Below, piece by piece: positions 6,866 through 56,552 of a DNA stretch of 64,000 nt (position 1 is the stretch's first letter; each line of letters opens with the position of its first letter). A program made the position numbers and the translations under genes. The stretch is from an uncultured Candidatus Saccharibacteria bacterium (GTDB lineage Bacteria > Patescibacteriota > Minisyncoccia > Phycocordibacterales > UBA9973). A model generated the notes under the pieces. The model did no database searches. It worked only from the letters and a program-made list of their open reading frames with translations, and was not told the DNA's origin. The DNA is taken from NCBI GenBank assembly GCA_964468315.1, contig CAYXTA010000002.1:64319-128318 (forward strand), written 5' to 3'.

Positions 6866-7588
6866 TTAAAATTGGTTAAGTCTCAGATCTCCTTGATAAA
6901 AAAGACGGATGTCGGGAATACCGAATTTTACGATAGTGAGGCGGTCGAGGCCGAAACCGAATGCAAATCCTTGCCATTCTTTTGGGTCGAGTCCACAATT
7001 CTTTATAACATTTGGATGCACCATACCTGCACCAAGAAGCTCCATCCATTTGCCATTGTGCTTCACGTCGACTTCAAACCCTGGCTCAACGAACGGAAAG
7101 AAAGATGGGCGCAATCGTATCTCTGCATCTTCACCGAGGAATTTCTTAAAAAATTCTGTAAGTACATATTTCAAGTTTGCTACATTAATATCTTTGCCAA
7201 TCATAAGCCCTTCGAGCTGGAAAAATTGCATCTCATGTCCTGCATCAGTTGATTCATTGCGAAAAACTTTACCTGGCACAACAATAGCAAATGGTGGTTG
7301 CTTCCCTTCTTTTACAAGTTGTTCCATATAACGAATCTGCACACCTGAAGTATGCGTACGAAGCACATGTTCTGGTTTATCTTTTATGAAAAAAGTATCT
7401 TGCATGTCACGAGCAGGATGATCTTTAGAAACATTAAGTGCATCGAAATTATGCCACTCATCTTCAAGCTCTGGACCAGTAGCTATCTCAAAACCCATAT
7501 CAGAGAATATAGAAACAACTTCATTTATAATGAGTGAAATAGGATGCTCGGTGCCTTTTTTCTGCTGTGTTTGTGCGTCGTCTGACAT
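6866..7588 (-). CDS. pheS: Phenylalanyl-tRNA synthetase alpha subunit (catalytic core only, 240 aa)
   Basis: Class II motifs FRNESTDAGHEMQFFQLEG and GFAFGFGLDRL; 2-nt gap to pheT. Confidence 0.9.
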   Translation of the reverse strand: MSDDAQTQQKKGTEHPISLIINEVVSIFSDMGFEIATGPELEDEWHNFDALNVSKDHPARDMQDTFFIKDKPEHVLRTHTSGVQIRYMEQLVKEGKQPPFAIVVPGKVFRNESTDAGHEMQFFQLEGLMIGKDINVANLKYVLTEFFKKFLGEDAEIRLRPSFFPFVEPGFEVDVKHNGKWMELLGAGMVHPNVIKNCGLDPKEWQGFAFGFGLDRLTIVKFGIPDIRLFYQGDLRLNQF

Positions 7589-7594
7589 TTCTCA

Positions 7595-7624
7595 ATTATA
7601 CTAGATTGGCTTCAAACGAGCCAA
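7595..7624 (-). promoter_or_regulatory. Candidate sigma70 promoter of pheS (TTGGCT-N18-TATAAT ending 6 nt before the ATG; possibly leaderless)
   Basis: On the minus strand: ttggctcgtttgaagccaatctagtataat tgagaa ATG. Confidence 0.3.
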
Positions 7625-7670
7625 TATATCTAATTCACAGTAAAAACCCCAAAAGAGTATAAAATAAAAA

Positions 7671-7711
7671 AACCAACAGAGGATACATTTTGTATCATGT
7701 TGGTTTTTAAT
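7671..7711 (-). terminator. Rho-independent terminator downstream of the 7715..8092 gene
   Basis: Long inverted repeat aaccaacagaggatacattttgtatcatgttggtt plus a T-run. Confidence 0.5.
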
Positions 7712-7714
7712 TTC

Positions 7715-8092
7715 TTATAATAAAAAGAATAATGAATCTATTAACCGGATTTTCCCTTTATTAAGAAATTCTACGATTTGTTCAAAATTTTGTCCGTCTC
7801 TGCCATTTAAAATGGCATCCAATCTTATATCTTTGTTTATGCAATGCTCAATTTTAATTTCTTTTTCCCCCATAAACAAAGATGGTTTAAAAAACTTGTT
7901 TTCGTCCCAAGTAAACTTTATAGAACGAACTTCTTTAATAAAAATAAAAGAAAATTTATTTGCATCTTCTTTTATTTTTAAGTCAGGTATAGCTTCTTTA
8001 AAAGAAGGGATAATTTTTGCATTAAGATGGTTACTCCATAATGCTGCTGGATTGAGTTCATGGGTTTCGAGCTCTATTTTTTTATGTGGCAT
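7715..8092 (-). CDS. Hypothetical protein
   Basis: 125-aa ORF with no recognisable motif. Confidence 0.35.
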   Translation of the reverse strand: MPHKKIELETHELNPAALWSNHLNAKIIPSFKEAIPDLKIKEDANKFSFIFIKEVRSIKFTWDENKFFKPSLFMGEKEIKIEHCINKDIRLDAILNGRDGQNFEQIVEFLNKGKIRLIDSLFFLL

Positions 8093-8173
8093 GGGAATTT
8101 ATTTAAAAGTTCAACGTATATTTATTTACCCTAAAATTACCAAATAAAAAACACTCTGTCAATAGGGTGTTTT

Positions 8174-9247
8174 TTATTTAACTTTCTCTAATTTAATCCT
8201 TTTATAATGCTTCTTATATTGATTATTGTGTTTCTGGCGAGATTTGCCTATCAATAATTGATTCAACTTTTTGGGAAATTTATCACAAATCTGACAAATA
8301 CGACTACAATAACCATCCAAATTTTTTTCACATTTCTTACAAGAAATAAAAAGAATATGACAAGAAAGATTTTTGCAATGAATATAATCATCGGATTTTT
8401 CTTTCTCACAAATCTGACAAGTAGAAACAATCTCATCTCCTATCCTTTCCCCCATTCTCTCATCAAAGACGAAATTCTTTCCTTTAAATTTATTTGGTAA
8501 TCCCAACTCTTTTACTCTGTGAGCATAATCAATGATACCTCCTTTTATATGCTTAACATTTTTAAAACCATTGTGTTTCATCCAAGCAGAAGCTTTTTCA
8601 CATCTAATACCTCCAGTACAATAAAGTAAAACATCTTCATCTTTTTTATCTTTAAACATATCTTGAACTTTTTGAAGTTGTTCTCGAAATGTATCTACGT
8701 CCATTATCTTCGCATTTTCAAAATGACCAATTACTGCTTCGTAAATATTGCGCATATCTATAACTGTCGTTCCACGATCTATCATTTCATTTACTTCTTC
8801 TGCGAGAGCGTACTGGCCAGTATTACTTGGATCAAAACTTTTATCATCGAGACCATCAGCAACTATTTTTTCTCGAACTTTTATTATGAGTTTAATGAAA
8901 CTACTACCCTTTTCTTCTACTGCAAATTTATATGGCACACCAGAAAATTCTGGTATATTTTGCAAAAATTTATCAAAAATTTCAAAGTTTGTTTCTGGCA
9001 CATTCATTTGTGCATTTATACCTTCATTCGCTATATAAATTCTACCGAGGCATTTGAGTTCTGAAAGTTTATCAAAAAGGAAATCACGCATCTCTTTTGA
9101 ATTTTCAATCTTTACATATTTATAAAAAGAAATAGTCTTGCGTTTAAAATTCTCTCGCGCCAAATCCTCTATAAGCTCCTTTTTACTTTTTTGATTAGCT
9201 TTTTCTACCATACTTTTCATATTAACGGCAAAAAGCTTTATTTGCAA
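8174..9247 (-). CDS. trhO: tRNA uridine(34) hydroxylase, rhodanese-like (YceA/TrhO family) with C-terminal Cys-rich zinc ribbon
   Basis: LLYCTGGIRCEKASAWMKHNGFKNV and GKNFVFDERMGERI are near-identical to E. coli YceA; C-terminal CxxC...CxxC clusters. Confidence 0.85.
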   Translation of the reverse strand: MQIKLFAVNMKSMVEKANQKSKKELIEDLARENFKRKTISFYKYVKIENSKEMRDFLFDKLSELKCLGRIYIANEGINAQMNVPETNFEIFDKFLQNIPEFSGVPYKFAVEEKGSSFIKLIIKVREKIVADGLDDKSFDPSNTGQYALAEEVNEMIDRGTTVIDMRNIYEAVIGHFENAKIMDVDTFREQLQKVQDMFKDKKDEDVLLYCTGGIRCEKASAWMKHNGFKNVKHIKGGIIDYAHRVKELGLPNKFKGKNFVFDERMGERIGDEIVSTCQICEKEKSDDYIHCKNLSCHILFISCKKCEKNLDGYCSRICQICDKFPKKLNQLLIGKSRQKHNNQYKKHYKRIKLEKVK

Positions 9248-9565
9248 GATTTATAGTATAATCAAAACATGAAAAGAAATATCATTATTTTGATTATTAT
9301 ATTCCTAGCAATAGGTATAACTCTCGGCTGGCTCGATAATGGACCTAGTTTGTTTTAATTGATTTTTCTCAAAAACAAGAGTAATCTAAACTTGTATCAT
9401 TATTGAGTAGTTTTGCTAAACCCAATAGACCTAATTGATTAGCACCCAAAAGGTTTGGACACATAGAAAGCAAAATGCTCCGATACTATCATGTATCAAA
9501 ATAGGGGTACAAAGCATAAAACTGCTCTTGTCACAAAGAGCAACCCTCGTTCTTTGACATATTAA

Positions 9566-9930
9566 GGTTATCAACAAAATTAAGATTAATTTAAAAATTT
9601 AAAAGCTATGAAGGACGTGATAAGCTACGATAAGCTTTGGGTATCTGCAAATAAGAGCCAATCCAAAGATTTCCGAATGGGGCAACCCAGTATTACTAAG
9701 TAATACTATTCCGAAAAGAAAGCTATAATCCGGAGAACTGAAACATCTAAGTACCCGGAAGAAGATAACAATCCTTAAGTAGTGGTGAGCGAAAAAGGAA
9801 AAGCCCAAACCAAGGTTGTAATTGTAATCTTGGGGTTGTAGGACTGTGATCATGTGCAGTATCCTGAGTACCGCAAGGATGGAGAAAACTTGTGGGAATC
9901 CACCGGCACCATCCGGTAAGGCTAACTTCT
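9566..9930 (+). rRNA. 23S rRNA 5' domain-I fragment (about 365 nt; truncated after approx. E. coli position 435; degenerate 5' helix), likely an rRNA relic or pseudogene
   Basis: Conserved 23S blocks are present in the right order: gatgaaggacgtg, gataagct...gataagcttt, tttccgaatggggcaaccc, ggagaactgaaacatctaagtaccc, agtagtggtgagcgaaa...gcccaaacc, ggggttgtaggactg, accatccggtaaggctaa. The conserved ccgatagtgaaccagtaccgtgagggaaagg block that should follow is absent. Confidence 0.7.
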
Positions 9931-9994
9931 GAATTAAATTTATTAAATTAATTTTAATCTAGGTGCAAAACATGATGAATTTCATGTGCATCTA

Positions 9995-10033
9995 ATCTCC
10001 CTGCGACTAAACGTTACAGGGAGATTTTTTTTA
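9995..10033 (+). terminator. Terminator-like hairpin immediately after the 23S fragment
   Basis: atctccctg cgactaaacgtta cagggagat followed by tttttttt. Confidence 0.5.
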
Positions 10034-10061
10034 TTTGACTTTAATCATATAAAGTGTTAAT

Positions 10062-10550
10062 TTGAAGAAAAGTACAAATAAACTAAAATATAATAAAATG
10101 GGAACTAAAAATATCATAAAGAAACATGGATTAGATTTTCTGTGGACTGTATGTATTGAAAAATCATCAGGAAAACACGAATCTCTCGATGAACACATTA
10201 GACAGTGTGAACAAGACGATGAAACTGTACAAAAAGAAAAAATAACCAAGAAATTTGTTGATAAATTAGGAGAAATATTTAAGAAGGACAAGGACGTATT
10301 TTTCTTTGTACACGATAGTCAATTTATGTTTTCTCCTGTCTTCTGTGTATTATCTGATATTGCAACACCAGAAGAACATAACTTGCTCAACCAAACAAAA
10401 CTTGCAATTGCTAAAAAGTTTAAAGAGTCTAATTTCTCAAATGAAGAAGTAAGGGATTTATTTTATAAATTACTTTATTCAAAAGAAAACAAGAAGAGGC
10501 TTGCAAATTTTGATTTAGAAATTTATGAAATAGAACACTACGATTACTAA
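10062..10550 (+). CDS. Hypothetical protein (162 aa; may start at MGTKNII, 10098)
   Basis: ORF only; no recognisable motif; directly follows the rRNA fragment. Confidence 0.35.
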   Translation: MKKSTNKLKYNKMGTKNIIKKHGLDFLWTVCIEKSSGKHESLDEHIRQCEQDDETVQKEKITKKFVDKLGEIFKKDKDVFFFVHDSQFMFSPVFCVLSDIATPEEHNLLNQTKLAIAKKFKESNFSNEEVRDLFYKLLYSKENKKRLANFDLEIYEIEHYDY

Positions 10551-10578
10551 ATCGTAACTTATTTCTGAGAAGAACAAA

Positions 10579-10613
10579 AATAGCTCTATAGTATTATAGA
10601 GCTATTTTTTTAT
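10579..10613. terminator. Bidirectional terminator
   Basis: atagctctatagtattatagagctat plus T-run between convergent genes. Confidence 0.6.
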
Positions 10614-13588
10614 TTAAACTTTTTTATTAACGAACAATATTCACACTCATCTTTACTACTTCCCCAAGGTTTGTAATGGCAAATATTATCTACCCATTCT
10701 CCACTTTCTAAATCTCGAACATAGTCACCAATATCTCTTTTTAATAAATCAATTTTCTCTGCATCTATATGTGTAGAATATAAAGCATTTTTATCTCCTT
10801 CTTCTGCTTCGAGGAAAAGAAGTCTTGAAGTATCAACGCTCTTCCCTTTCTCAGCTCCAGCAACAAGATACGAATACATAGCAAGCTGACGCATATATGA
10901 AGACAAGCGACCTTCGTCATCTATTTTTTCTATTTCACTTTTTATTTTTGGTTTACCAGTTTTGAAATCAGTAATTGTAATATTTCCATTTTCTCTTTCT
11001 GTTAAGTCTAGTTTTCCATACATAAGCAAATCTGGGAATTTTGGATCAGTAAATTGAACTGATCTTTCAGATATATAATCTTTTGATAAAGAATCATAAT
11101 AATTTTTTATCCAATTCATAACAGCTTTCTCAGCGTCTTTTGTAAGTCTTTTTATTTCTTTTTCATCGATTAATCCTTCTTTTAGCAAAGATTCATTTAT
11201 CTTTTCTTTTATTTGTTTATCACTTGGTATTTCTTTATTTTTCAAAATAAATTCGATAGTGGAGTGAACAGCAGAACCAAGTGCAAGTGAAACACCTTTG
11301 ACTTCTGGAAGTTTCAAGAAATTTCTAAAATACCATTTCCATGTACATTCAAAAAAATTATTGAGCAATGAAACAGAAACTTTACTTTCTTTATAATGTT
11401 CCTTTACGAATTTTTTAATTTCTTCTATTATGTTCCCTTCTTTTTTTTCTACAATATTTGTAAAAATCTTTACTCCAATATCATCGGAAGATATTTCTTT
11501 TTCTGTTTCTTCTTTTGTTTTTTTAATAAAATGAGTATGTGGCAATTCACGGATTATTTGTGCGAGTTCTAACTCCCCTCCATTATAGTTCTCACTTGCA
11601 TATGAAATAACACAATTCTCTTTCGCACGAGTAATAGCGACATAAAGCTCTCTTTTAGCATTCTCTACATCACGCTCAGCAATATGAGCTTTTATCTTTT
11701 CTGGCAAAGTAAAACCATTTCTCTTTTCAGACATAAGTACTTCTTCATTCATATACGCAATCCAAACATTTTTATATTCCAAACCTTTTGATTTGTGAAG
11801 TGTCATAACTTGTATACCAGTATCTGCGCCAAAAGTAGCAAGGCTAATATTATTTCCATATTCTTTAAGTCTCAAAAAATACTCTATAAAATCTTTCAAA
11901 CTTGCATTTGTATGTTTTGCTTCAAACATCAAAGCTATATGAATGAAAGTCCTCACCACTTCTACATTTTTCAAAAGTTCACTATGGTTTTCAGATTTAT
12001 CTATCAAAAGCTCATTGCCTATCTTACTAATAACTACAGAGATTTTTTCATTTGCCAATTCTATCCAATTTTTTAAATTTCCTCCCCATTTTGAAATATT
12101 ATTTTCTCCTGCAAAAAGTCCATCCCCTTCGCCATGATTGATAATATCTTCTAAGGTTATTTTTTCAGGTTTAATACTTTTTAAAAATTTATGCGCTTCA
12201 AATACACCTATTCTACTTGTATTATCAAGCAGTGATTCTGATAACAAAATAGGATTATATGGATCAATTACTATATTGAGTATTCTCAAAAAACTATATG
12301 TTTCTTTTACATTAAAAAGTGACACGCTTTTCCCTGTTGAAACAGGAAGTCCTAAATCAGAAAGTATCTGCATTGCACTACGTACATGGAAATTTTTTGG
12401 TACAAGTATCGCACATTGTTCTGGTATATCTCCACTTGCAATTTTATTTTTAAAATAAAGCCCAGCACCTATTATCTCGTCTCTATGATAACTATATTCA
12501 TTAAGTAATATTTTTTCTTTTCCTTTTATATTTGAATTTAATTTTTCTTTTGTAATAGAACTACTAAGCAGATTATCAGCCAAGTCCAATATAGGTGCAG
12601 TGGATCGATAATTTTCTGTAAGAATAATTAATTTTGCTTTACCGAAAAAGTGTGCGAATTCTTCGAAATATGAAAGTTTAGCACCAGAGAAAGCGTAAAT
12701 AAGTTGCCTATCATCTCCTACGACAAAAATATTTGGTTTCTCTATGTCTTTCCAAACAGCTTTAAGAAAATTGTTTTGTACTCCGCTAGAATCTTGATGT
12801 TCATCTACTAAAACATAATTATAGTTTTCATAAATATCGGCACGTACATCTTCGTATTTTTCTACAAGATTTACTGCATATTCCAAAACATCATCATAAT
12901 CCATAAGATTTTCTTCTTTCTTTTTATCTTCATATATACGATAAAATTCGACAACTTCACGAGTGCGTTCTAATGATTCTATTTTCTTTTCGATTTCTTT
13001 TTTTAATTTACCCTTACTTTCTCCACGAGACGAAATACTATCTGGATCATTTTTTAAAAACTTTATATCACCTTCAACTTCTTTTAAGAATTCTTCTGGA
13101 TTCAATCTTTCGCGTTTAAGTATAGAAATAAGCTGTTTCAAATCGTTAAAATACATGGTAGGGTTTGTGCGAGGACGAAGATATTCCCAAGTATTATTTT
13201 GCATTATTTCATCTGCTAAAAATACAGCTTCATCTTCTTCTATTAATTTTGGCATTCTTTTGAAATCCAAAAGTTCATAATTGTTTTCTACTAAAGAAAT
13301 AGCAAAAGAGTGAAAAGTAGAAATATGAACATTATTTGCATCAATACCTATATATTCTTCAAGTCTTTTCTTCATTGCTTTTACACCAGAATTTGTAAAA
13401 GTAAGACAAAGTATACTGTCAGCTTTATTGTCAGTTTTTTTTAAAATATTTCCAATACGCAGAGCAAGTACTTGCGTCTTCCCTGTTCCAGGCCCAGCAA
13501 CAACCATAACAGGTCCATCTAATGTATCGACAGCTTCTTTTTGTGCATTATTTAATTTTTTATATTCTTGTAAAAAAATATTAATCAT
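10610..13588 (-). CDS. UvrD/PcrA-family SF1 helicase fused to a C-terminal RecB/Cas4-like PD-(D/E)XK nuclease with Cys cluster (AddAB-like single chain)
   Basis: Walker A VVAGPGTGKTQ at the N-terminus, UvrD-like motifs throughout. C-terminus has GKLDL...ITDFKTGK (D...DxK), QLAMYSYL (QxxxY) and C...CHYKPWGSSKDECEYC (four-Cys Fe-S type as in AddB/Cas4). Confidence 0.75.
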   Translation of the reverse strand: MINIFLQEYKKLNNAQKEAVDTLDGPVMVVAGPGTGKTQVLALRIGNILKKTDNKADSILCLTFTNSGVKAMKKRLEEYIGIDANNVHISTFHSFAISLVENNYELLDFKRMPKLIEEDEAVFLADEIMQNNTWEYLRPRTNPTMYFNDLKQLISILKRERLNPEEFLKEVEGDIKFLKNDPDSISSRGESKGKLKKEIEKKIESLERTREVVEFYRIYEDKKKEENLMDYDDVLEYAVNLVEKYEDVRADIYENYNYVLVDEHQDSSGVQNNFLKAVWKDIEKPNIFVVGDDRQLIYAFSGAKLSYFEEFAHFFGKAKLIILTENYRSTAPILDLADNLLSSSITKEKLNSNIKGKEKILLNEYSYHRDEIIGAGLYFKNKIASGDIPEQCAILVPKNFHVRSAMQILSDLGLPVSTGKSVSLFNVKETYSFLRILNIVIDPYNPILLSESLLDNTSRIGVFEAHKFLKSIKPEKITLEDIINHGEGDGLFAGENNISKWGGNLKNWIELANEKISVVISKIGNELLIDKSENHSELLKNVEVVRTFIHIALMFEAKHTNASLKDFIEYFLRLKEYGNNISLATFGADTGIQVMTLHKSKGLEYKNVWIAYMNEEVLMSEKRNGFTLPEKIKAHIAERDVENAKRELYVAITRAKENCVISYASENYNGGELELAQIIRELPHTHFIKKTKEETEKEISSDDIGVKIFTNIVEKKEGNIIEEIKKFVKEHYKESKVSVSLLNNFFECTWKWYFRNFLKLPEVKGVSLALGSAVHSTIEFILKNKEIPSDKQIKEKINESLLKEGLIDEKEIKRLTKDAEKAVMNWIKNYYDSLSKDYISERSVQFTDPKFPDLLMYGKLDLTERENGNITITDFKTGKPKIKSEIEKIDDEGRLSSYMRQLAMYSYLVAGAEKGKSVDTSRLLFLEAEEGDKNALYSTHIDAEKIDLLKRDIGDYVRDLESGEWVDNICHYKPWGSSKDECEYCSLIKKFK

Positions 13589-36847: not shown

Positions 36848-39800
36848 TTATTTCTCAATACTTACTTTAAAATTTAAAGTATCAACTTTTACCTCTTCCC
36901 CACTATTAGCCTCAAACTTTATTTCACTCACCAAAATAGTTTTCTTAAAATCAGCTTCGAATTTTTCAATTAGATTTTTTCCTACTTCGTCTGTTTCAAT
37001 AGAAAGTGAAATGACATCTGAAGGAGTTAGACCTACTTTTTTACGCATATCTTGAATAGCACGAACTAATTCGCGATAATTCCCTTCTTCTTTTAACTCT
37101 GGAGTTATTTCTGTATTAAGAATTGTATAACTTTCAATATTTTCATCAAAAATAACTTCTTTAATATTTACTTCATCTTTTATAAGTTCAATATATTCTT
37201 CACCAAGTTTCATTCCTTTTATTTTCAATTCAGATAATGGTTGGCGTACAGGAATACTTGCTTTCTGACGATCTTTCAAACCAAGAGAAACATTATTTCT
37301 AACACTTTGCATTTCTTCGATAACTTTATTATTTACATCTTGATTAATTAGCCACTCACAAAGATGCACAGACTCTGGTTCATTTTTATTTTTTAATTTT
37401 TGATAAATATCTTCTGAAGCGAAAGGTGCAAATGGAGCCATAATCTTTGTAAGATTTTTTAATACAAAATGCAATGTTTGTTTTGCTTCTTTATCTCCTT
37501 CCTTTATGCGTTCTCGTGAGCGACGCAAATACCAAGTAGAAAGATCATCGATAAATTCTCTTACAGCTCTAACTGGTTCGAGGGTTTTATAATTATCAAG
37601 ATTCTCTGTAACATTTTTCAAAAGCTCATTAAAACGAGCGAGTATCCAAACATCTAAAACATTTTCTGATTCTATTTTTTCAAAATTTTCTAAATCTTTT
37701 TCTCTATAAAGTTCATAAAAGGCTACAACGTTATAAAGAAGTCCAAAGAATTGTCTGTGTAATTCCATAACAGTACGCTCGTCGAAATTTTTAGATTCTC
37801 CTGGTTGATTCACAGAGTACATCCAAAGACGAATAGTATCTGCTCCATATTTTTCAAACATAATCCATGGGTCGACAACATTACCACGAGACTTAGACAT
37901 CTTTTGTCCATTTGCATCGAGAATGTGTCCAAGACAAACAACATTTTTGTAAGCATTATTTGCTTCATCTGAAAGTAAATTTGCTACTGCGTGCAAAGTA
38001 TAAAACCATCCACGAGTCTGATCTATCGCTTCTGAAATGTAATCTGCTTTTGCAGGTGCAAAGTTTATTTCTCCTCCGAGTTTATGATTTTGTGCATACG
38101 GCATTGCTCCAGAATCAAACCAAACATCCATAACTTCTGAAGTACGAGTTAATGTTTCTCCATTATATTCCAATCTTACTTGGTCAATATATGGTTTATG
38201 AAAATCGAGTTCGAAATTTTGATTGTGCGGTAATGGTGTAAAATCCAATTCTTTTATTTCTGCATTTTGGAAATAGTGGAAATCTTTCAAATCTGAAACC
38301 ATAGAGAGAGTTTCTTCTATATTTTTCGCTTGTGCTCCAGCAAACAAAAGCCATGCTGGTCCACCATGAGTAACAAATAAAATATTTTTGTCTTTATATT
38401 TTTCTTCTACTTCGTACAAAAATGCTGTAACACGATTCTTTACATCTTGATATGATTCATCTTCTGCTATATGAGATTTAAAATTCTCAGGAGTTTTTAT
38501 ATGAGATTTATGATACTCTTCCCAATTTTTTCCGTCAAAAGATTCGATACCCATTTCACGAAGTCTTTCGTCCACTATCACTTTCTCTTTATCTAAACCT
38601 ATCTTTTCTCTAACTATTTCTGCTGTTTCAAGAGTACGAATAAAATCTGAAGTAAAAATCAAATCAATATTTTTATCTTTCATAGTTTCTGCAGATTTTC
38701 CTGCTTGTTCAATACCGTCAGCGTCTAAATGCCATTCCCCGTTAGGAATAGAACAAATAATACTTTTCTTATTTGCCTCTGTTTCACCATGACGCATTAC
38801 AAAATATTTATTTCCACTTTTCTTTGTATTTTTTTTCAAATCTTCTAAAGAAGAAATAACTTTATAGCTTCCATCTTCTTTCTGCCAAATAGGAAGTGGT
38901 GTTCCCCAATAACGATCACGAGAAATAGCCCAGTCTTTTATACCATCTAGCCATTCACCGAATCTTCCCTCTTTTATATGTTTTGGTTCCCAATTTATTT
39001 TTTCATTTCCATCAAGCAATTGCTGACGAAGTGCACTCATACGGAAATACCAAGATGTACGTGCATAATAAATAAGTGGTGTATCACAACGCCAGCAGTG
39101 TGGATAGCTGTGCATATGATTTTCTTTTTTAAACAATAATCCTCGAGAGGTAAGGTTGTCGATAATATCCACAGCGAGTGTCGGCTTACCATTTTCATCT
39201 GTTTCTTTAACATATCTTCCTTCTAAAAATTCTGTTCCTGAAACAAATTTTCCTTCTTCGTTTACTGTATGATATTTCGGTAAATTAACTTTTGTACCAA
39301 GATCGAAATCATCTGCTCCATACATAACAGCAGTGTGAACTATTCCTGTGCCATCTGTAGTTGTCACAAAATCAGCCCCGTACACCTTAAAAGCATTTTT
39401 TAAATTTCCTATTTGTGTTGGAACTTCTTTTTCAATATTATTTTTCAAATATAGAAATAGCGGTTCGTATTCTAGTCCAATTAAATCTTTACCTTTTATT
39501 TTTTCTAAAATTTCATATTCTTCAGTAATTACTGATAATCTACTTTCAGCTAAAATTAAAAATTCTTTATCTGTTTTTATTTTTACGTATTCAATATCTT
39601 CACCTACAGCTAAAGCGACATTGCCCGGTAACGTCCAAGGAGTTGTTGTCCATGCAAGCAAATAGACTTCACCAGATATGTTTTCTGAATGGTCTGGTGA
39701 CTTCCCCCGAGGACCTGAAGAAAATATTTCTGGTGAAGTAACACAGAACTTCACATAAACAGAAAGATCTTTCACGTCTTTATATGCTCCCGGCTGAGAA

Positions 39801-40387
39801 AGTTCATGACTTGAAAGAGCAGTACCACAACGTGTACACCAAGGAAGTACTTTGAAATCTTTATATAGGTGTCCGCGTTCATTTGCTTTCGCAACGACGC
39901 CCCACAAAGCTTCAATGTAATTATTTCGGTAAGTCACATATGGATTTTCTTGATCTACCCAATATCCCATACGATATGTAAATTTTTCCCATAATTCTAA
40001 AAATTGCCAGACGCTTTCTTTACATTGATCATTAAATTTTGCTACTCCGTATTCTTCAATAGATTTTTTAGAATTAAGACCAAGGGCTTTTTCTACTTGT
40101 AATTCCACAGGCAGACCATGAGTGTCCCAACCAGCTTTTCTTGGCACATGAAAACCTTGCATTGTCTTATAGCGAGGAATCACATCTTTGAAAGACCTTG
40201 CTTCTAAGTGGTGTATTCCAGGTTTACCATTTGAAGTCGGAGGTCCTTCATAAAATATATATTCACCTTTTGAATTTTCAGGTTTATTTAAACTCTTCAA
40301 AAAGATATCATTCTTTTTCCAAAATTCTAAAACTCCTTCTTCACGAAGTGCTGTCTCTGATTTAATTGTTTCATTTTTTTCTTCCAT
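36848..40387 (-). CDS. ileS: Isoleucyl-tRNA synthetase with in-frame inserted histidine-phosphatase domain (1179 aa)
   Basis: HIGH-type motif PPTSNGKPGIHH, editing domain (TTPWTLPGN), WAISRDRYWGTP, DVWFDSG, KMSKS (GQKMSKSRGN). Extra about 170 aa between W501 and KPYID. Confidence 0.9.
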   Translation of the reverse strand: MEEKNETIKSETALREEGVLEFWKKNDIFLKSLNKPENSKGEYIFYEGPPTSNGKPGIHHLEARSFKDVIPRYKTMQGFHVPRKAGWDTHGLPVELQVEKALGLNSKKSIEEYGVAKFNDQCKESVWQFLELWEKFTYRMGYWVDQENPYVTYRNNYIEALWGVVAKANERGHLYKDFKVLPWCTRCGTALSSHELSQPGAYKDVKDLSVYVKFCVTSPEIFSSGPRGKSPDHSENISGEVYLLAWTTTPWTLPGNVALAVGEDIEYVKIKTDKEFLILAESRLSVITEEYEILEKIKGKDLIGLEYEPLFLYLKNNIEKEVPTQIGNLKNAFKVYGADFVTTTDGTGIVHTAVMYGADDFDLGTKVNLPKYHTVNEEGKFVSGTEFLEGRYVKETDENGKPTLAVDIIDNLTSRGLLFKKENHMHSYPHCWRCDTPLIYYARTSWYFRMSALRQQLLDGNEKINWEPKHIKEGRFGEWLDGIKDWAISRDRYWGTPLPIWQKEDGSYKVISSLEDLKKNTKKSGNKYFVMRHGETEANKKSIICSIPNGEWHLDADGIEQAGKSAETMKDKNIDLIFTSDFIRTLETAEIVREKIGLDKEKVIVDERLREMGIESFDGKNWEEYHKSHIKTPENFKSHIAEDESYQDVKNRVTAFLYEVEEKYKDKNILFVTHGGPAWLLFAGAQAKNIEETLSMVSDLKDFHYFQNAEIKELDFTPLPHNQNFELDFHKPYIDQVRLEYNGETLTRTSEVMDVWFDSGAMPYAQNHKLGGEINFAPAKADYISEAIDQTRGWFYTLHAVANLLSDEANNAYKNVVCLGHILDANGQKMSKSRGNVVDPWIMFEKYGADTIRLWMYSVNQPGESKNFDERTVMELHRQFFGLLYNVVAFYELYREKDLENFEKIESENVLDVWILARFNELLKNVTENLDNYKTLEPVRAVREFIDDLSTWYLRRSRERIKEGDKEAKQTLHFVLKNLTKIMAPFAPFASEDIYQKLKNKNEPESVHLCEWLINQDVNNKVIEEMQSVRNNVSLGLKDRQKASIPVRQPLSELKIKGMKLGEEYIELIKDEVNIKEVIFDENIESYTILNTEITPELKEEGNYRELVRAIQDMRKKVGLTPSDVISLSIETDEVGKNLIEKFEADFKKTILVSEIKFEANSGEEVKVDTLNFKVSIEK
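38290..38830 (-). other. Histidine-phosphatase (phosphoglycerate-mutase family) domain embedded in IleS, approx. aa 520-700
   Basis: YFVMRHGETEANKK (RHG catalytic motif, codons at 38789..38794), DLIFTSDFIRTLETAEIV, IVDERLREMGIESFDGKNWEEY, LFVTHGGPAWLL (second His motif, codon at 38366..38368). Confidence 0.75.
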
Positions 40388-40690
40388 AATATTATTAAAG
40401 AAATCAAGATATGTATTTTAGGGGGTTGCTCATTCGACGGAATGAGCACTTCAGAAATTTTAAAGCTTTAAAATTTCGTACCCTAAAATATATTTCTGAT
40501 TTCTATTGTTAAAAATAAAAAAACTCGTCCCCGTACAACAATTTAAAATTGCTATACAAGGACGAGTTTCTCGTGGTACCACCTTGCTTACTTCTCATTT
40601 AATGGGTTCTACTTCCCGAAGGTTTCTTCCCAAAGCTCAGGGGTGATATCCCCTTCAACGCTTATATTTAAATATTACTACATATTTATA
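40388..40690 (-). promoter_or_regulatory. T-box riboswitch leader of ileS
   Basis: Minus strand carries the T-box sequence aaggtggtaccacgag, then terminator aaactcgtcc...ggacgagttt with a U-run. Upstream hairpin agggg-atATCac-cccct exposes AUC(A), the Ile specifier; the UGGU bulge matches discriminator A. Confidence 0.65.
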
Positions 40691-40698
40691 AAAAAGAA

Positions 40699-40730
40699 AA
40701 CCCCGCATCGCAGGGTTTACTTGTTTTTAA
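40699..40730 (-). terminator. Terminator of the 40727..41059 gene
   Basis: Minus strand aaaccctgcgatgcggggttttctttttt. Confidence 0.55.
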
Positions 40731-41059
40731 TTATTTACTTTTTTAAGCAATTCATCAATTTTTAATGCAATATCATTACTTTTTTTCCTTTGCAAATTTT
40801 TAGAAAAGAAATATTGTTTAGCACCATTTTTTTTACTTTGAATAAAAGCATAAAATGATAATTCAGAAGTTTTAAAAGTATCTAATATCATTTTACTTAC
40901 AGGAAAAAGTGGAACATGAATTTTAGTCCTTCCAATGAAACAGACTGCATTTCGTTCTGGCTCTTCTTGTTCTAAAGATGGATGTTTTGAAATGATCTCA
41001 TTTGCAAAATCACTTGCAGGAAAAATAAAATACTGCTCGACAAATTTTTTTGTTCCCAT
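40727..41059 (-). CDS. Hypothetical protein
   Basis: 110-aa ORF with its own terminator; no recognisable motif. Confidence 0.35.
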   Translation of the reverse strand: MGTKKFVEQYFIFPASDFANEIISKHPSLEQEEPERNAVCFIGRTKIHVPLFPVSKMILDTFKTSELSFYAFIQSKKNGAKQYFFSKNLQRKKSNDIALKIDELLKKVNN

Positions 41060-41149
41060 TTTATATAGTTTTAAAAGTTAATATTCTAAAATATTTATAG
41101 CAGAAAAAACAAACTTTGTCAAAAGCTGGTTTTAAAGAATATTAAAAAT

Positions 41150-42850
41150 TTACATTCTCTCGGGTAAAGAAATACCGAGAAGCCAAAGACCATTTTGCAT
41201 TGTTGAAAGAAATGCTTTTGTTATACCTACGTAATAATGTGAATATTTATCTTTAGTATTTAGTATTTGTGTTTGTGCATAGAAAGAATTAAAAGTTGAA
41301 GCAAGGTTTATCAGATATGTAGCAATATGATTTGGTTCTAATTCTTGATATGAATAACTAACAACTTCAGGAAAACGATATAGAACTTTTTCTAAATCTG
41401 AAACCTCATTTGGAATATCTGAGAAAGATGTATGACCCAATGCTTTTGCAAGGATGGATTTCGCACGAATAGCGGAATATTGAAGATATGGACCAGAGTC
41501 CCCTTCGAAAGAAATAGATTTTTCAAAATCATAAACAATATCTGAACCAAGTGATGAGCGAAGTATGGAATATTTCAAAGCAGACACACCGACTATTTCA
41601 GAAAGTTTTTTCTTTTCATCTTCTGTAAACTCTCGATCTTTTATTTTTTCTAAAACAACATCCATAGAATCACGAAGTAAAGATTCCCCAGTGACTACAT
41701 TCCCTTTTCTTGAAGACATCTTACCAGTAGCAAGGCGCATCATACCGTGAGTTATGTGTTTCATACGAGACTGAATTTCAGGATGCATTATAGCGATAGC
41801 TTGCTCTACGACTTTCATATACTCAGCTTGTTCAATAGCTGTAGTAACGATAGAAATATCTGGATTTTCTTTTTCAAATTTTGTAATAGTCAGACCTATT
41901 TCTTTTGTCTCATATGTTGGAAGTCCTTTTGAATTTATAAAAACTCTTGTGTGGAGCTTTGGATTATAATTTTCTGCTTTGAAAACTATTGCTCCATCAG
42001 ATTCCTCAAAAATTTTACCAACATTTTCACGCACTATTTTCTCACCAATAGGCGCCATGATACTTTCGAAAAAGTAATAATCGAATTTCGTTCCGAGAGT
42101 TTTATATATTTCTTCAAAAGCTTCTAATGTGACCTTCCTTCCCCAATCATAAATCTTATTTATTTCTTCATCGCTTCTGTCGTAAACTTTTTTATTAATT
42201 TCATCAATTTCTTTTTTTGCATCTCCGTCATTGTCATATGCATCACTACCTTTTGAATAACATTCTCCAATATATTGAGCGAGTACTGAAGATGAAGCTG
42301 ATTCATCTGCTGGAGCTCCAGCTTTCTGCATTCCATAAATAGCTTTCGCAACGTGCGGACCGACATCACCTTGATAGTTTGCTCGCACAACTTTAGCACC
42401 TGAAAATTCAACAATACGAGAAATTGATTCTCCTATTGCATTACTCATTAAGTGGCCAATATGAAATGGTTTAAAAGGATTTGGTTGAGTATACTCTACC
42501 ATCACTTTTTTATTTTTTAATATTTCATTACTTCCCCAATTTTCATTGGACTCTATTATTTCTTTTATAGAATTACTGAAAAATTCTCTTGATAAATAAA
42601 AATTAATAAATCCTGCACCAGCGACTTCTACTTTTTCGATTTGATCATCTTTAGCAGAAAAAATTTCTGCAGAAATTTTTTCTGCTAATTCTCTCAGATT
42701 CATCTTTAAATTTTTAGCACATACCATCGCCACATTCGTAGAATAGTCCCCATTCTTAAAATCTTCCGGATGTTCAACAGAAAAATTCCCAGCTTCTATG
42801 TCTAGGCTTTTCAATGCTTGTAGTATTAAATTCTCTATTTTTTGTTTCAT
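41150..42850 (-). CDS. argS: Arginyl-tRNA synthetase
   Basis: HIGH motif PFHIGHLMSN, MSSRKG (KMSKS variant), C-terminal DALR anticodon-binding domain. Confidence 0.9.
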   Translation of the reverse strand: MKQKIENLILQALKSLDIEAGNFSVEHPEDFKNGDYSTNVAMVCAKNLKMNLRELAEKISAEIFSAKDDQIEKVEVAGAGFINFYLSREFFSNSIKEIIESNENWGSNEILKNKKVMVEYTQPNPFKPFHIGHLMSNAIGESISRIVEFSGAKVVRANYQGDVGPHVAKAIYGMQKAGAPADESASSSVLAQYIGECYSKGSDAYDNDGDAKKEIDEINKKVYDRSDEEINKIYDWGRKVTLEAFEEIYKTLGTKFDYYFFESIMAPIGEKIVRENVGKIFEESDGAIVFKAENYNPKLHTRVFINSKGLPTYETKEIGLTITKFEKENPDISIVTTAIEQAEYMKVVEQAIAIMHPEIQSRMKHITHGMMRLATGKMSSRKGNVVTGESLLRDSMDVVLEKIKDREFTEDEKKKLSEIVGVSALKYSILRSSLGSDIVYDFEKSISFEGDSGPYLQYSAIRAKSILAKALGHTSFSDIPNEVSDLEKVLYRFPEVVSYSYQELEPNHIATYLINLASTFNSFYAQTQILNTKDKYSHYYVGITKAFLSTMQNGLWLLGISLPERM

Positions 42851-53452: not shown

Positions 53453-53490
53453 TATGTTTATTACAAACTAAAATAGAATTTATTTCACTG

Positions 53491-53564
53491 TGCGCCCTCA
53501 TGGATTCGAACCATGGACCCCAGAGGTATAAGCTCTGTGCTCTAACCAACTGAGCTAAGGGCGC
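53491..53564 (-). tRNA. tRNA-Ile (anticodon TAT)
   Basis: Reverse complement folds as gcgccct-ta-gctc-agttggtta-gagc-a-cagag-ctTATac-ctctg-gggtc-catgg-ttcgaat-ccatg-agggcgc-a. Confidence 0.8.
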
Positions 53565-55944: not shown

Positions 55945-56158
55945 ATTGCAGAACTCTTTTTTAGGTTCGCATATTAATGGTTGTTGCGGCCACAGTTTTC
56001 GCTTCCTTTTGTGAAATTACGTTGTTACTTGAACAACTTTCATGTTGGCTCTTTGCCAGGCTAAACTTTTTCATGTTTTTTGTTTTTTTAATTAAGTTAA
56101 GAACTATAAACTATAAAAAGAATAGCAAAAAGAAAAACAATGAGCAAGTTTTATTTTG

Positions 56159-56552
56159 TGGAACTGTGGAGAATTGAACTCCAGTGCAGAAGGTATTTGC
56201 AAAGAAATCTACATGTGTAGCGAGCTTTTTTGTTTAAATCAAAAAATTCTTAAGCGAGCGAAATATTTTTTGATCGATTCTCTTTGTTTTGGAAGAAAGT
56301 CGAGAAAGTCTTTTTCCTATCCCGATAATATTATGCCTCAACACATATATCGGAAGTCTATGAGTGAGACACCAGCCGAGCCTATTAGGCGAAAGCTGGA
56401 GCGAAAGCGAAATCTTTCATACCGAAGTATGGAGATGCTTTAGCCTTAGAAGCTAATTTTGCAATTAAGCTATGAACGAAATTTTACGAGTATACGTTCA
56501 TCCTCGACATGCATCAATAGTAAACAGTCTCCTGTCTATGCCTTGCAGTCCC
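56159..56552 (-). ncRNA. ssrA: tmRNA (transfer-messenger RNA)
   Basis: 5' GGGACUG pairs with 3' CAGUUCC-A (G3:U70 Ala identity pair). T-arm GGAG-UUCAAUU-CUCC; GCAUGUCGAGG...CUCGUAAAA blocks as in E. coli tmRNA. Tag frame ...AKLASKAKASPYFGMKDFAFAPAFA ends with a double stop UAA UAG. Lies 2 nt after the smpB stop. Confidence 0.75.

Follow-up and report, generated by a model that had tools for sequence, protein, structure and literature searches.

Why should an aminoacyl-tRNA synthetase carry a phosphatase in the middle of its catalytic body? This question is raised by a gene on a 64,000-nucleotide stretch of DNA, here called the window, which originates from an uncultured Candidatus Saccharibacteria bacterium, a member of the ultra-small Patescibacteria (assembly GCA_964468315.1, contig CAYXTA010000002.1, positions 64,319 to 128,318). 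The gene, ileS, encodes an isoleucyl-tRNA synthetase (IleRS) whose reading frame accommodates a domain of the histidine phosphatase superfamily. Aminoacyl-tRNA synthetases are among the best-studied enzymes, and catalytic domains nested in their core are rare apart from the editing domain in connective peptide 1 (CP1) of class Ia synthetases, a hydrolytic domain of universal occurrence.

The original prediction of this architecture, which was based on the letters of the window, was not aware of any earlier description, but it has been described before. A single sentence by Kantor and colleagues (Kantor et al., 2013, mBio, PMC3812714) mentions an SR1 IleRS that is interrupted by a Nudix and two phosphoglycerate mutase (PGM) domains, and hundreds of such proteins are contained in public databases, where the fused genes are annotated merely as 'class I tRNA ligase family protein'. 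The SR1 protein resembles the one described here in that PGM-family histidine phosphatase domains interrupt an IleRS of the same superphylum, whereas the window protein contains one phosphatase copy and no Nudix domain. In full-text searches of the literature, this sentence was the only one found on the architecture, and the searches revealed neither a functional study nor any prior analysis of its catalytic residues, its distribution, a free homologue adjacent to ileS, a counterpart in valyl-tRNA synthetase (ValRS) or its function. The architecture has thus been glimpsed previously but not studied.

A complete phosphatase domain inside a type 2 IleRS

The gene is located on the minus strand. 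Its conservation was analysed in relation to its closest relatives, which were drawn from a collection of 5.8 billion proteins (NCBI, JGI, ENA and Logan assemblies) and of which the best 120 were examined, with conservation read from an alignment of 121 sequences. The parts of the gene and the motifs that define its two enzymes are:

36848..40387, minus strand: ileS with nested phosphatase (IleRS2), a single uninterrupted open reading frame (ORF) of 1179 aa from ATG to TAA
38819..40387, minus strand: N-terminal part of IleRS, aa 1-523, from the Pfam tRNA-synt_1 stretch 19-524 and invariant columns
36851..38239, minus strand: C-terminal part of IleRS, aa 717-1179, with Pfam Anticodon_1 at 912-1052 and DUF5915 at 1089-1179
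40208..40219, minus strand: GIHH (GxHH) class I signature in place of HxGH, read directly
39632..39649, minus strand: editing-domain motif TTTPWT, from its motif coordinates
37889..37903, minus strand: KMSKS motif, from its motif coordinates
38240..38818, minus strand: histidine phosphatase insert, aa 524-716, ~194 residues, from alignment to insert-less IleRS and free phosphatase
38309..38803, minus strand: Pfam His_Phos_1 (PF00300), aa 529-693, E=9.7e-34, 117.2 bits against a gathering score of 21.7, profile positions 2-166 of 194
38789..38794, minus strand: R532-H533 of the RHG motif, H533 being the predicted phospho-acceptor, invariant in 121/121
38636..38638, minus strand: R584, second phosphate-binding arginine, in the S-x3-R-x2-E-T block, invariant in 121/121
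38555..38557, minus strand: E611, predicted proton donor, in the DERLRE block, invariant in 121/121
38366..38368, minus strand: H674, second catalytic histidine, in the THGGP block, invariant in 121/121

The synthetase is complete on both sides of the insert. Its N-terminal part comprises the first half of the Rossmann fold, the CP core, the CP1 editing domain, CP2 and the first half of CP3, and it ends with WGTPLPIW...VISSLEDLKKNTKK, whereas the C-terminal part resumes with the end of CP3 (PLPHN..HKPYID) and continues with the second half of the Rossmann fold (DVWFDSG), KMSKS, the anticodon-binding domain and DUF5915. In Pfam, the tRNA-synt_1 match is broken into two stretches with His_Phos_1 between them. 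The NCBIfam ileS model TIGR00392 matches the protein with 861 bits at a cut-off of 621, and the models scoring next best are MupA/MupB, above other IleRS models, which points to a type 2 affinity. An AlphaFold2 model of the full-length protein (predicted local distance difference test, pLDDT, 84.6; predicted template modelling score, pTM, 0.75) has its best fold match in the IleRS2 of Priestia megaterium (8c8w/8c8v, TM 0.8, 32% identity), with yeast IleRS in complex with tRNA (8wnd) and Thermus thermophilus IleRS among the further top matches. In the relatives, GIHH, KMSKS and TTTPWT are all kept, with H59 and H60 of the class I signature invariant and G57 conserved in at least 90%. With KMSKS and TTTPWT intact, the window IleRS2 looks like a working, editing-competent enzyme, and no second IleRS was found in the 64-kb window.

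The swapped GxHH motif has been described in 86 of 163 IleRS2 sequences, where it is linked to mupirocin hyper-resistance (Brkic et al., 2023, Nat Commun, PMC10485003). The window protein is likewise an IleRS2 with swapped motif, and its best structural match is the P. megaterium IleRS2 of that study (8C8U-8C9D). In contrast to the window IleRS2, however, CP3 is short in those IleRS2 enzymes that have been characterised, and no catalytic domain is inserted into it. A curated family of IleRS with an extra small-molecule enzyme domain, a GNAT acetyltransferase, is described by the model NF040702 (ileS_w_GNAT), which the window protein matches with 338 bits at a cut-off of 1999, and a Pfam match to GNAT is absent from it, although one of its relatives (P0231, see below) combines His_Phos with GNAT. 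As a separate observation, the window encodes a tRNA-Ile with the anticodon UAU (53490..53564, minus strand), whose 3' CCA is not encoded. This anticodon is unusual in bacteria, where AUA is normally read by a lysidine-modified tRNA with the anticodon CAU.

The insert contains the intact catalytic set of a histidine phosphatase. The continuous ileS frame, the in-frame histidine phosphatase domain within an otherwise complete IleRS and the motifs FVMRHGETEANKK, FTSDFIRTLETAEIV, VDERLRE and LFVTHGGPAWLL had all been recognised in the original prediction, and they are found where it had placed them. It had also located the insert correctly, whereas its length, put at about 170 residues within 38290..38830 (aa ~520-699), was underestimated compared to the ~194 residues defined by alignment. 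Besides the catalytic residues listed above, S580 and T588 show no variation either, and conservation reaches 99% at G534 and N539. The position of E611 is occupied by Asp in the family of free phosphatases described below. The average identity between pairs of the 121 sequences is 45% in the phosphatase domain and 69% in the remaining synthetase body, and the invariance of the catalytic residues in the faster-evolving part thus reflects selection specifically on catalysis. The domain thereby withstands the refutation that the original prediction had itself foreseen for the case of non-conserved catalytic residues in orthologous inserts. The insert adopts the alpha/beta fold of the histidine phosphatase superfamily in the prediction, where it forms an independent domain and is the best-predicted part of the full-length model (pLDDT 85-96), and when modelled alone it reaches a pLDDT of 87 and a pTM of 0.87.

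Alignment with insert-less relatives locates the junctions between '...WG.P.P.W-(CxxC)-..VIGS.EELK..' on one side and '..PLP....HRPYID..(CxC)..DVWFDSG' on the other, and it thus places the insertion site inside the CP3 subdomain. In T. thermophilus IleRS this subdomain carries a zinc motif, and its topology varies among IleRSs (Chung et al., 2020). The window protein has lost the entire set of four zinc-knuckle cysteines, the equivalent positions being K503, G506, Y741 and N742 (~38162..38881, minus strand), whereas these cysteines are kept in about half of the fused relatives and in all insert-less neighbours examined.

The fusion is not an artefact

An unusual architecture of this kind might result from a chimeric assembly, from an intein-like or other mobile element, or from a degenerate domain with a structural role, and the C-terminal junction (...PLPHN) bears a superficial resemblance to that of an intein. 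We consider such explanations extremely improbable. All of the 120 best relatives share the Pfam architecture of the window protein, at 58-87% identity and on contigs of up to 357 kb, and those that are named come from metagenome-assembled genomes (MAGs) of Nomurabacteria, Paceibacteria, Minisyncoccia or Patescibacteria. Since the same architecture is found in independent assemblies, a chimera, which the original prediction had seen as a possible pitfall, is excluded, and the composition agrees, as the GC content of the insert (0.31-0.33) equals that of the remainder of the gene and is uniform across the junctions. Pfam detects no Hint, intein or endonuclease domain. The residue following HN is Q or E instead of a C, S or T nucleophile, and the sequence ...PLPHN|Q at the junction belongs to IleRS itself, being also present in insert-less relatives and in Thermus-type IleRS. 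The invariant catalytic residues argue equally against a degenerate domain.

A phosphatase of the PhoE-like group

The insert had initially been labelled as a member of the PGM family, which is too specific. The equivalog models of cofactor-dependent mutases all score below their cut-off on the window protein (dPGM_arch 75 against 225 bits, GpmB 49 against 261, PRK01112 30 against 320), and the same holds for models of small-molecule phosphatases (ribazole_cobC 82.6 against 162.9, PspA 50 against 350) and for PRK13463 (50 against 277) and SixA (27.5 against 74.5). An identity as glycolytic dPGM, CobC or PspA is thereby ruled out. In mutases, the substrate motif following the proton donor is 'ERHYG'. 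The corresponding block of the insert reads DERLREMGIESFDGKNWEEY and aligns with DERLREIHLGDWEGKTHDEI of PhoE, which conforms to the phosphatase-type pattern 'E..G.WEG', and the best matches in both sequence and fold are PhoE, PspA and GpgP. Based on the scores below cut-off and the phosphatase-type 'DERLRE..G..W' block, we assign the insert to the PhoE-like group of branch-1 histidine phosphatases and not to the phosphoglycerate mutases.

The resemblance to the characterised members of this group is distant. PhoE (YhfR) of Geobacillus stearothermophilus (PDB 1EBB/1H2E), the phosphoserine phosphatase PspA (4IJ5) and GpgP (6S2Q) are only ~25% identical to the insert, and they are free-standing metabolic proteins, whereas the phosphatase of the window is nested in an aminoacyl-tRNA synthetase and in relatives operon-linked to one. 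Histidine phosphatase domains joined to enzymes acting on nucleic acids or nucleotides are found in the RNase H/acid phosphatase (NF005567, Rv2228c type) and in mycobacterial MutT1 (Nudix and RHG domain). In contrast to the architecture described here, these are end-to-end fusions that are not nested, none of them involves a synthetase, and the role of their phosphatase half is unclear or protein-directed.

Distribution, copy number and sites of insertion

To define its distribution, the insert alone was used in an exhaustive HMMER search of 1.84 billion cluster representatives, which returned 9378 matches at E<=1e-3. The best 150 of these were classified and include 65 full IleRSs, 28 IleRS fragments and 53 free proteins of ~185-210 aa with 29-42% identity to the insert. 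In a sample of GTDB species genomes, which contains no close relatives of the window and is not a measure of prevalence, the phosphatase is located inside ileS in 16 of the 80 IleRS2 loci listed. The titles of these 16 name Paceibacteria, Minisyncoccia, Yanofskybacteria, Spechtbacterales, 'Saccharibacteria', Peregrinibacteria, Peribacteria and Patescibacteria, with several given just as 'bacterium' and one carrying the MAG label 'Gammaproteobacteria'. At the remaining 64 listed loci, the phosphatase was found neither inside ileS nor in the examined flank of up to 3 kb; nearly all of them belong to other phyla (Clostridia, Ignavibacteria, Chloroflexi, Actinobacteria), with at least one from a Patescibacteria MAG. 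The architecture is common in Patescibacteria.

Within IleRS, the domain varies in number and position. At the CP3 site it is present in one, two or three copies, the latter in the truncated P0267. The IleRS of a Peribacteria locus (L072, 1472 aa) contains two copies there. In the relative P0187, one copy follows DSG..MPYAQ and a further one is found where the helical anticodon-binding domain begins. There are thus at least three insertion sites in IleRS, and two IleRS2 clades with phosphatase. The relative P0231 has acquired three in-frame additions, a RAYT-like domain, the phosphatase and a GNAT acetyltransferase, with the first and last at aa 326-472 and 921-1065. The former, a REP-associated tyrosine transposase/IS200-like domain in the region of the editing domain, is recognised by NF047646 with 81 bits at a cut-off of 80, and the latter is inserted after DSG..MPYAQ. 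As a further case of an accessory enzyme domain on a tRNA enzyme of the candidate phyla radiation (CPR), we observed in Peregrinibacteria (L092, CP065009.1, 11462..12688, minus strand) a protein of 408 aa in which TrmD, a tRNA m1G methyltransferase, is fused to GNAT domains.

A corresponding architecture is found in ValRS. The protein P0155 contains four copies, one after SPQWF and three after WGHRIPVW, which corresponds to the site used in IleRS, and about 70 of its 120 best relatives are full-length ValRSs with PF00300 from Gracilibacteria and Peregrinibacteria, on contigs of up to 1.37 Mb. In sequence, the ValRS domains stand apart as a group of their own, with ~30% identity to all others and ~52% among themselves, whereas inserts from IleRS hosts with either GxHH or HxGH group with the free proteins at 39-47% identity. 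As judged from this separation, there have been at least two recruitments of the phosphatase into synthetases. The original prediction had noticed neither the ValRS counterpart nor the variation in copies and sites, nor the free homologue next to ileS described below.

A free homologue is encoded next to ileS

The closest free homologues of the insert are proteins of Patescibacteria (Nealsonbacteria, Parcubacteria), and they match it over its entire length, as the free protein aligns with the insert from its first residues (..NKY-hhh-RHGET) through its last. The insert thus equals a whole free phosphatase in extent. Seven of these free homologues were looked up, having been picked mainly for their long contigs and not for context. 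At all seven loci ileS follows the phosphatase gene immediately and in the same orientation, separated from it by ~1 to 130 bp. The order L20-L35-IF3 / SmpB / argS - phosphatase - ileS - small ORF - recO is shared by six of them, and at the seventh, which is located at the end of a contig, the neighbour of the phosphatase is a canonical ileS of the HYGH type. The neighbouring IleRSs (931-966 aa) are 39-49% identical to the window protein, lack the insert exactly at the junction and retain the zinc knuckle, and at three loci (L001, L003 and L005) they share GxHH with the fused clade.

The equivalent region of the window has the following features:

41150..42850, minus strand: argS, arginyl-tRNA synthetase gene, upstream of ileS, from ORF translation and synteny
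40388..41149, minus strand: spacer between argS and ileS, ~760 bp, the place of the free phosphatase gene in relatives
40727..41059, minus strand: ORF of 110 aa in the spacer, no Pfam match

A hidden Markov model (HMM) of the free phosphatase finds no match in any frame of this spacer, and thus no detectable gene remnant, whereas the sole match of the free family in the window is the IleRS insert (E=8.7e-45). Likewise, no separate copy was found in the flanks of up to 3 kb examined at the 16 fused GTDB loci. Fusion and adjacency thus look like alternative states of one partnership. A gene that is a free neighbour in some genomes and a nested domain in others has the properties of a Rosetta-stone pair, which points to functional coupling, and the phosphatase and IleRS very probably work together. 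Taken together, sequence comparison leads us to conclude with high confidence that the window encodes a complete PhoE-type phosphatase nested in CP3 of a GxHH IleRS2, that this phosphatase belongs to a Patescibacteria-specific family elsewhere encoded just upstream of ileS, and that the fusion represents, in covalent form, a conserved partnership of two genes.

It might be argued that a housekeeping phosphatase was carried along by co-expression in an argS-ileS operon and was later nested in a permissive loop without any link to aminoacylation. The variable topology of CP3 among IleRSs makes it a probably permissive site, the synthetases tolerate the domain at several sites and in different copy numbers, its evolution is faster than that of the host, and tRNA enzymes of the CPR carry other unrelated-looking fusions, as in the case of P0231 (RAYT-like and GNAT) and the TrmD-GNAT protein of L092. 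However, an accidental neighbour would not be expected to remain adjacent, with tiny gaps, to IleRSs that are 39-49% identical to the window protein, nor would independent recruitments, among the matches listed from the insert-only search, always have occurred in IleRS or ValRS, and none of the loci examined was found to combine a free with a fused form. In light of these features, and of a systematic difference in charge described below, we regard such an origin as unlikely.

Further genes were observed near the free phosphatase. A stand-alone NUDIX gene is located a few kb upstream of argS-phosphatase-ileS at four loci (L001 2314..2769; L005 and L006 1..219; L007 1..76); its recurrence may be relevant given the Nudix insert in SR1 IleRS, or may be a coincidence. 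In Nealsonbacteria (L003 6597..7959, L004 6638..7711), a pair resembling a diversity-generating retroelement (bAvd and the reverse transcriptase RVT_1) is located between argS and the free phosphatase, directly upstream of the latter.

Free and tethered forms differ in charge

A pronounced feature that distinguishes the free from the fused forms concerns their charge. The 118 free homologues retrieved with P0158 have a median isoelectric point (pI) of 10.0 and a net charge of +22, compared to a median pI of 5.6 and a net charge of -6 in the 121 fused inserts, although this raw contrast is confounded by the basic proteomes of the genomes with free copies and by the heterogeneity of the free relatives. 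For that reason, only the comparison within genomes was kept. In six loci, which belong to one family and are thus not independent, the free phosphatase is more basic than the IleRS encoded beside it, the difference amounting to +6.0 to +17.8 charges per 100 aa (mean +10.3), and at L001 its basicity is on par with that of SmpB and IF3. In the fused proteins, by contrast, the difference between insert and host body has a median of -1.4 and a maximum of +2.6 (n=121), and it ranges from -3.1 to +1.9 in nine further lineages. About nine of the ~25 extra charges are concentrated in the cap segment (aa 607-645), which accounts for 20% of the length of the domain and lines the entrance to the active site, and further ones are found in the RHG loop and in helix alpha-1. 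Since the cognate IleRSs at the loci with free phosphatase are neutral to basic, the charge is unlikely to serve docking on IleRS. These features are suggestive of a free phosphatase that recruits a polyanion, most plausibly RNA, and of a tethered form that is brought to its ligand by IleRS.

Other features of the window

Two further RNA features were found in the window. An isolated fragment of 23S rRNA (9596..9936, plus strand) covers model positions ~37-483 of 2925 with 223 bits and is flanked by protein ORFs on both sides; with no other rRNA pieces in 7500..11000 or in the rest of the window, it could belong to an rRNA gene that is fragmented or rich in introns, or represent a pseudogene. 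The tmRNA gene (56156..56552, minus strand), encoding the tag peptide AKLASKAKASPYFGMKDFAFAPAFA, is an ordinary feature.

Discussion

The presence of a phosphatase in or next to IleRS leads to the question of its substrate. The roles considered in the original prediction, at tRNA 3' ends, on Ap4A or on a phosphorylated regulator, all still stand as candidates. We infer that the phosphatase removes phosphate from a ligand bound by the synthetase. Since the free forms are basic and concentrate this charge at the cap, unlike the fused forms, the ligand would be a phosphorylated polyanion that is bound by the synthetase, and its likeliest identity would be tRNA-Ile carrying a 3'- or 2'-phosphate, or a 3'-pyrophosphate remainder, at or near the acceptor end. 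We thus tentatively favour the removal of a blocking phosphate from the acceptor end of tRNA-Ile as function of the phosphatase, a proposal that we hold to be quite possible though short of probable. In the proposed mechanism, the free forms would find their ligand via the very basic surface around the active-site cap, whereas the tethered form would have it delivered by IleRS and could dispense with such charge. H533 would accept the phosphate to form a phospho-histidine intermediate, in which R532, R584 and H674 would hold the phosphate while E611 acts as acid, and water would subsequently free the phosphate to leave a chargeable tRNA on the IleRS that aminoacylates it. Behind this mechanism stands the analogy to the CP1 editing domain, which is similarly nested in the CP region of IleRS and ValRS and acts on the acceptor end of a tRNA that the enzyme itself delivers, although it has an unrelated fold, catalyses ester hydrolysis and is not restricted to a lineage.

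Several observations weigh against the repair of tRNA ends. To our knowledge, no member of the histidine phosphatase superfamily acts on them. The several insertion sites, one of which lies where the helical anticodon-binding domain begins, argue against a strict geometric requirement, and tandem arrays of two to four apparently active copies would not be needed for end repair. The evidence from charge is limited by the non-independence of the six loci and by the fact that only ~27% of the free relatives are strongly basic at the level of 50%-identity representatives. Nor was the adjacency reproduced with ValRS, where a His_Phos gene was found within 5 kb at 0 of 3 insert-less valS loci. Finally, the co-inserted Nudix (Kantor et al., 2013) and GNAT domains fit the housecleaning of small molecules at least as well.

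In such housecleaning, the phosphatase, together with Nudix and GNAT in relatives, would clear or inactivate nucleotide-type by-products or antimetabolites near the active site. Candidates are breakdown products of Ap4A or other ApnA, nucleoside phosphates, and phosphorylated or phosphoramidate mimics of the aminoacyl-adenylate that poison IleRS. Nudix, His_Phos and GNAT, which co-occur in the IleRSs of relatives, are classic families of housecleaning and detoxifying enzymes. The closest characterised relatives of the insert are all small-molecule phosphatases (PhoE, PspA, GpgP, CobC and the riboflavin HFP), tandem arrays could provide several specificities, and a substrate that diffuses would agree well with insertion at several sites. 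The GxHH motif of the host, with its tie to resistance against an IleRS inhibitor, suggests inhibitor pressure on this enzyme, and natural fusions of Nudix and His_Phos exist, as in MutT1, whose Nudix half acts on ApnA and 8-oxo-GTP. MutT1 does not, however, provide a precedent for a nucleotide phosphatase, since its RHG domain has been described as being of 'unknown activity' and later work points to sensor kinases, so that it illustrates the existence of such fusions and nothing more. The clearing of small molecules would not account for the net charge of ~+22, concentrated at the cap, of the operon-encoded free forms, nor for the specificity for IleRS and ValRS as opposed to all synthetases that make Ap4A. 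We know of no natural IleRS inhibitor that bears a phosphate. There is also no signal from PADLOC or other defence families, with the PADLOC models matching neither the window protein nor the free homologue P0273, and P0302 showing one marginal and irrelevant match. On balance, we view this function as conceivable but rather unlikely.

A third candidate function concerns the protection of the synthetase itself, by a protein phosphatase that strips an inhibitory phosphate from IleRS, for example from a serine of the KMSKS loop, or from a partner protein. Hip-type kinase toxins phosphorylate GltX and TrpS, and the superfamily includes protein phosphatases such as SixA, PGAM5, Sts and the C-terminal domain of MutT1, which acts on sensor kinases. 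Every insertion site is in or beside the catalytic body, and action in cis would explain the tethering. The best matches in sequence and fold are small-molecule phosphatases, however, with SixA-type proteins scoring lower, a kinase or toxin gene was seen neither in the window nor at the loci of relatives, and the basic charge of the free forms is left unexplained given that their IleRS is not acidic. It thus appears improbable that this is the role of the phosphatase.

The favoured removal of phosphate from tRNA can also be framed more broadly, in that Patescibacteria would couple a dedicated phosphatase, either in an operon or as nested domain, to the class Ia synthetases of branched-chain amino acids for the repair or proofreading of phosphorylated tRNA acceptor ends beside CP1. 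We offer this framing with considerable reserve. Such acceptor-end repair might protect against toxins that attach phosphate or pyrophosphate to the 3' ends of tRNA.

Collectively, the points of note in this study are the preservation of the catalytic residues in 121 orthologues, the repeated recruitment of the phosphatase into IleRS and ValRS across a vast, uncultivated bacterial radiation and its Rosetta-stone relationship to a partner gene. The name 'class I tRNA ligase family protein' conceals both the identity as IleRS or ValRS and the extra domain. If its substrate were tRNA, the phosphatase would represent a new kind of synthetase-linked tRNA repair and a second layer of quality control beside the CP1 editing site, whereas if it were a nucleotide or an inhibitor, it would constitute a detoxification module that is built into an antibiotic target.

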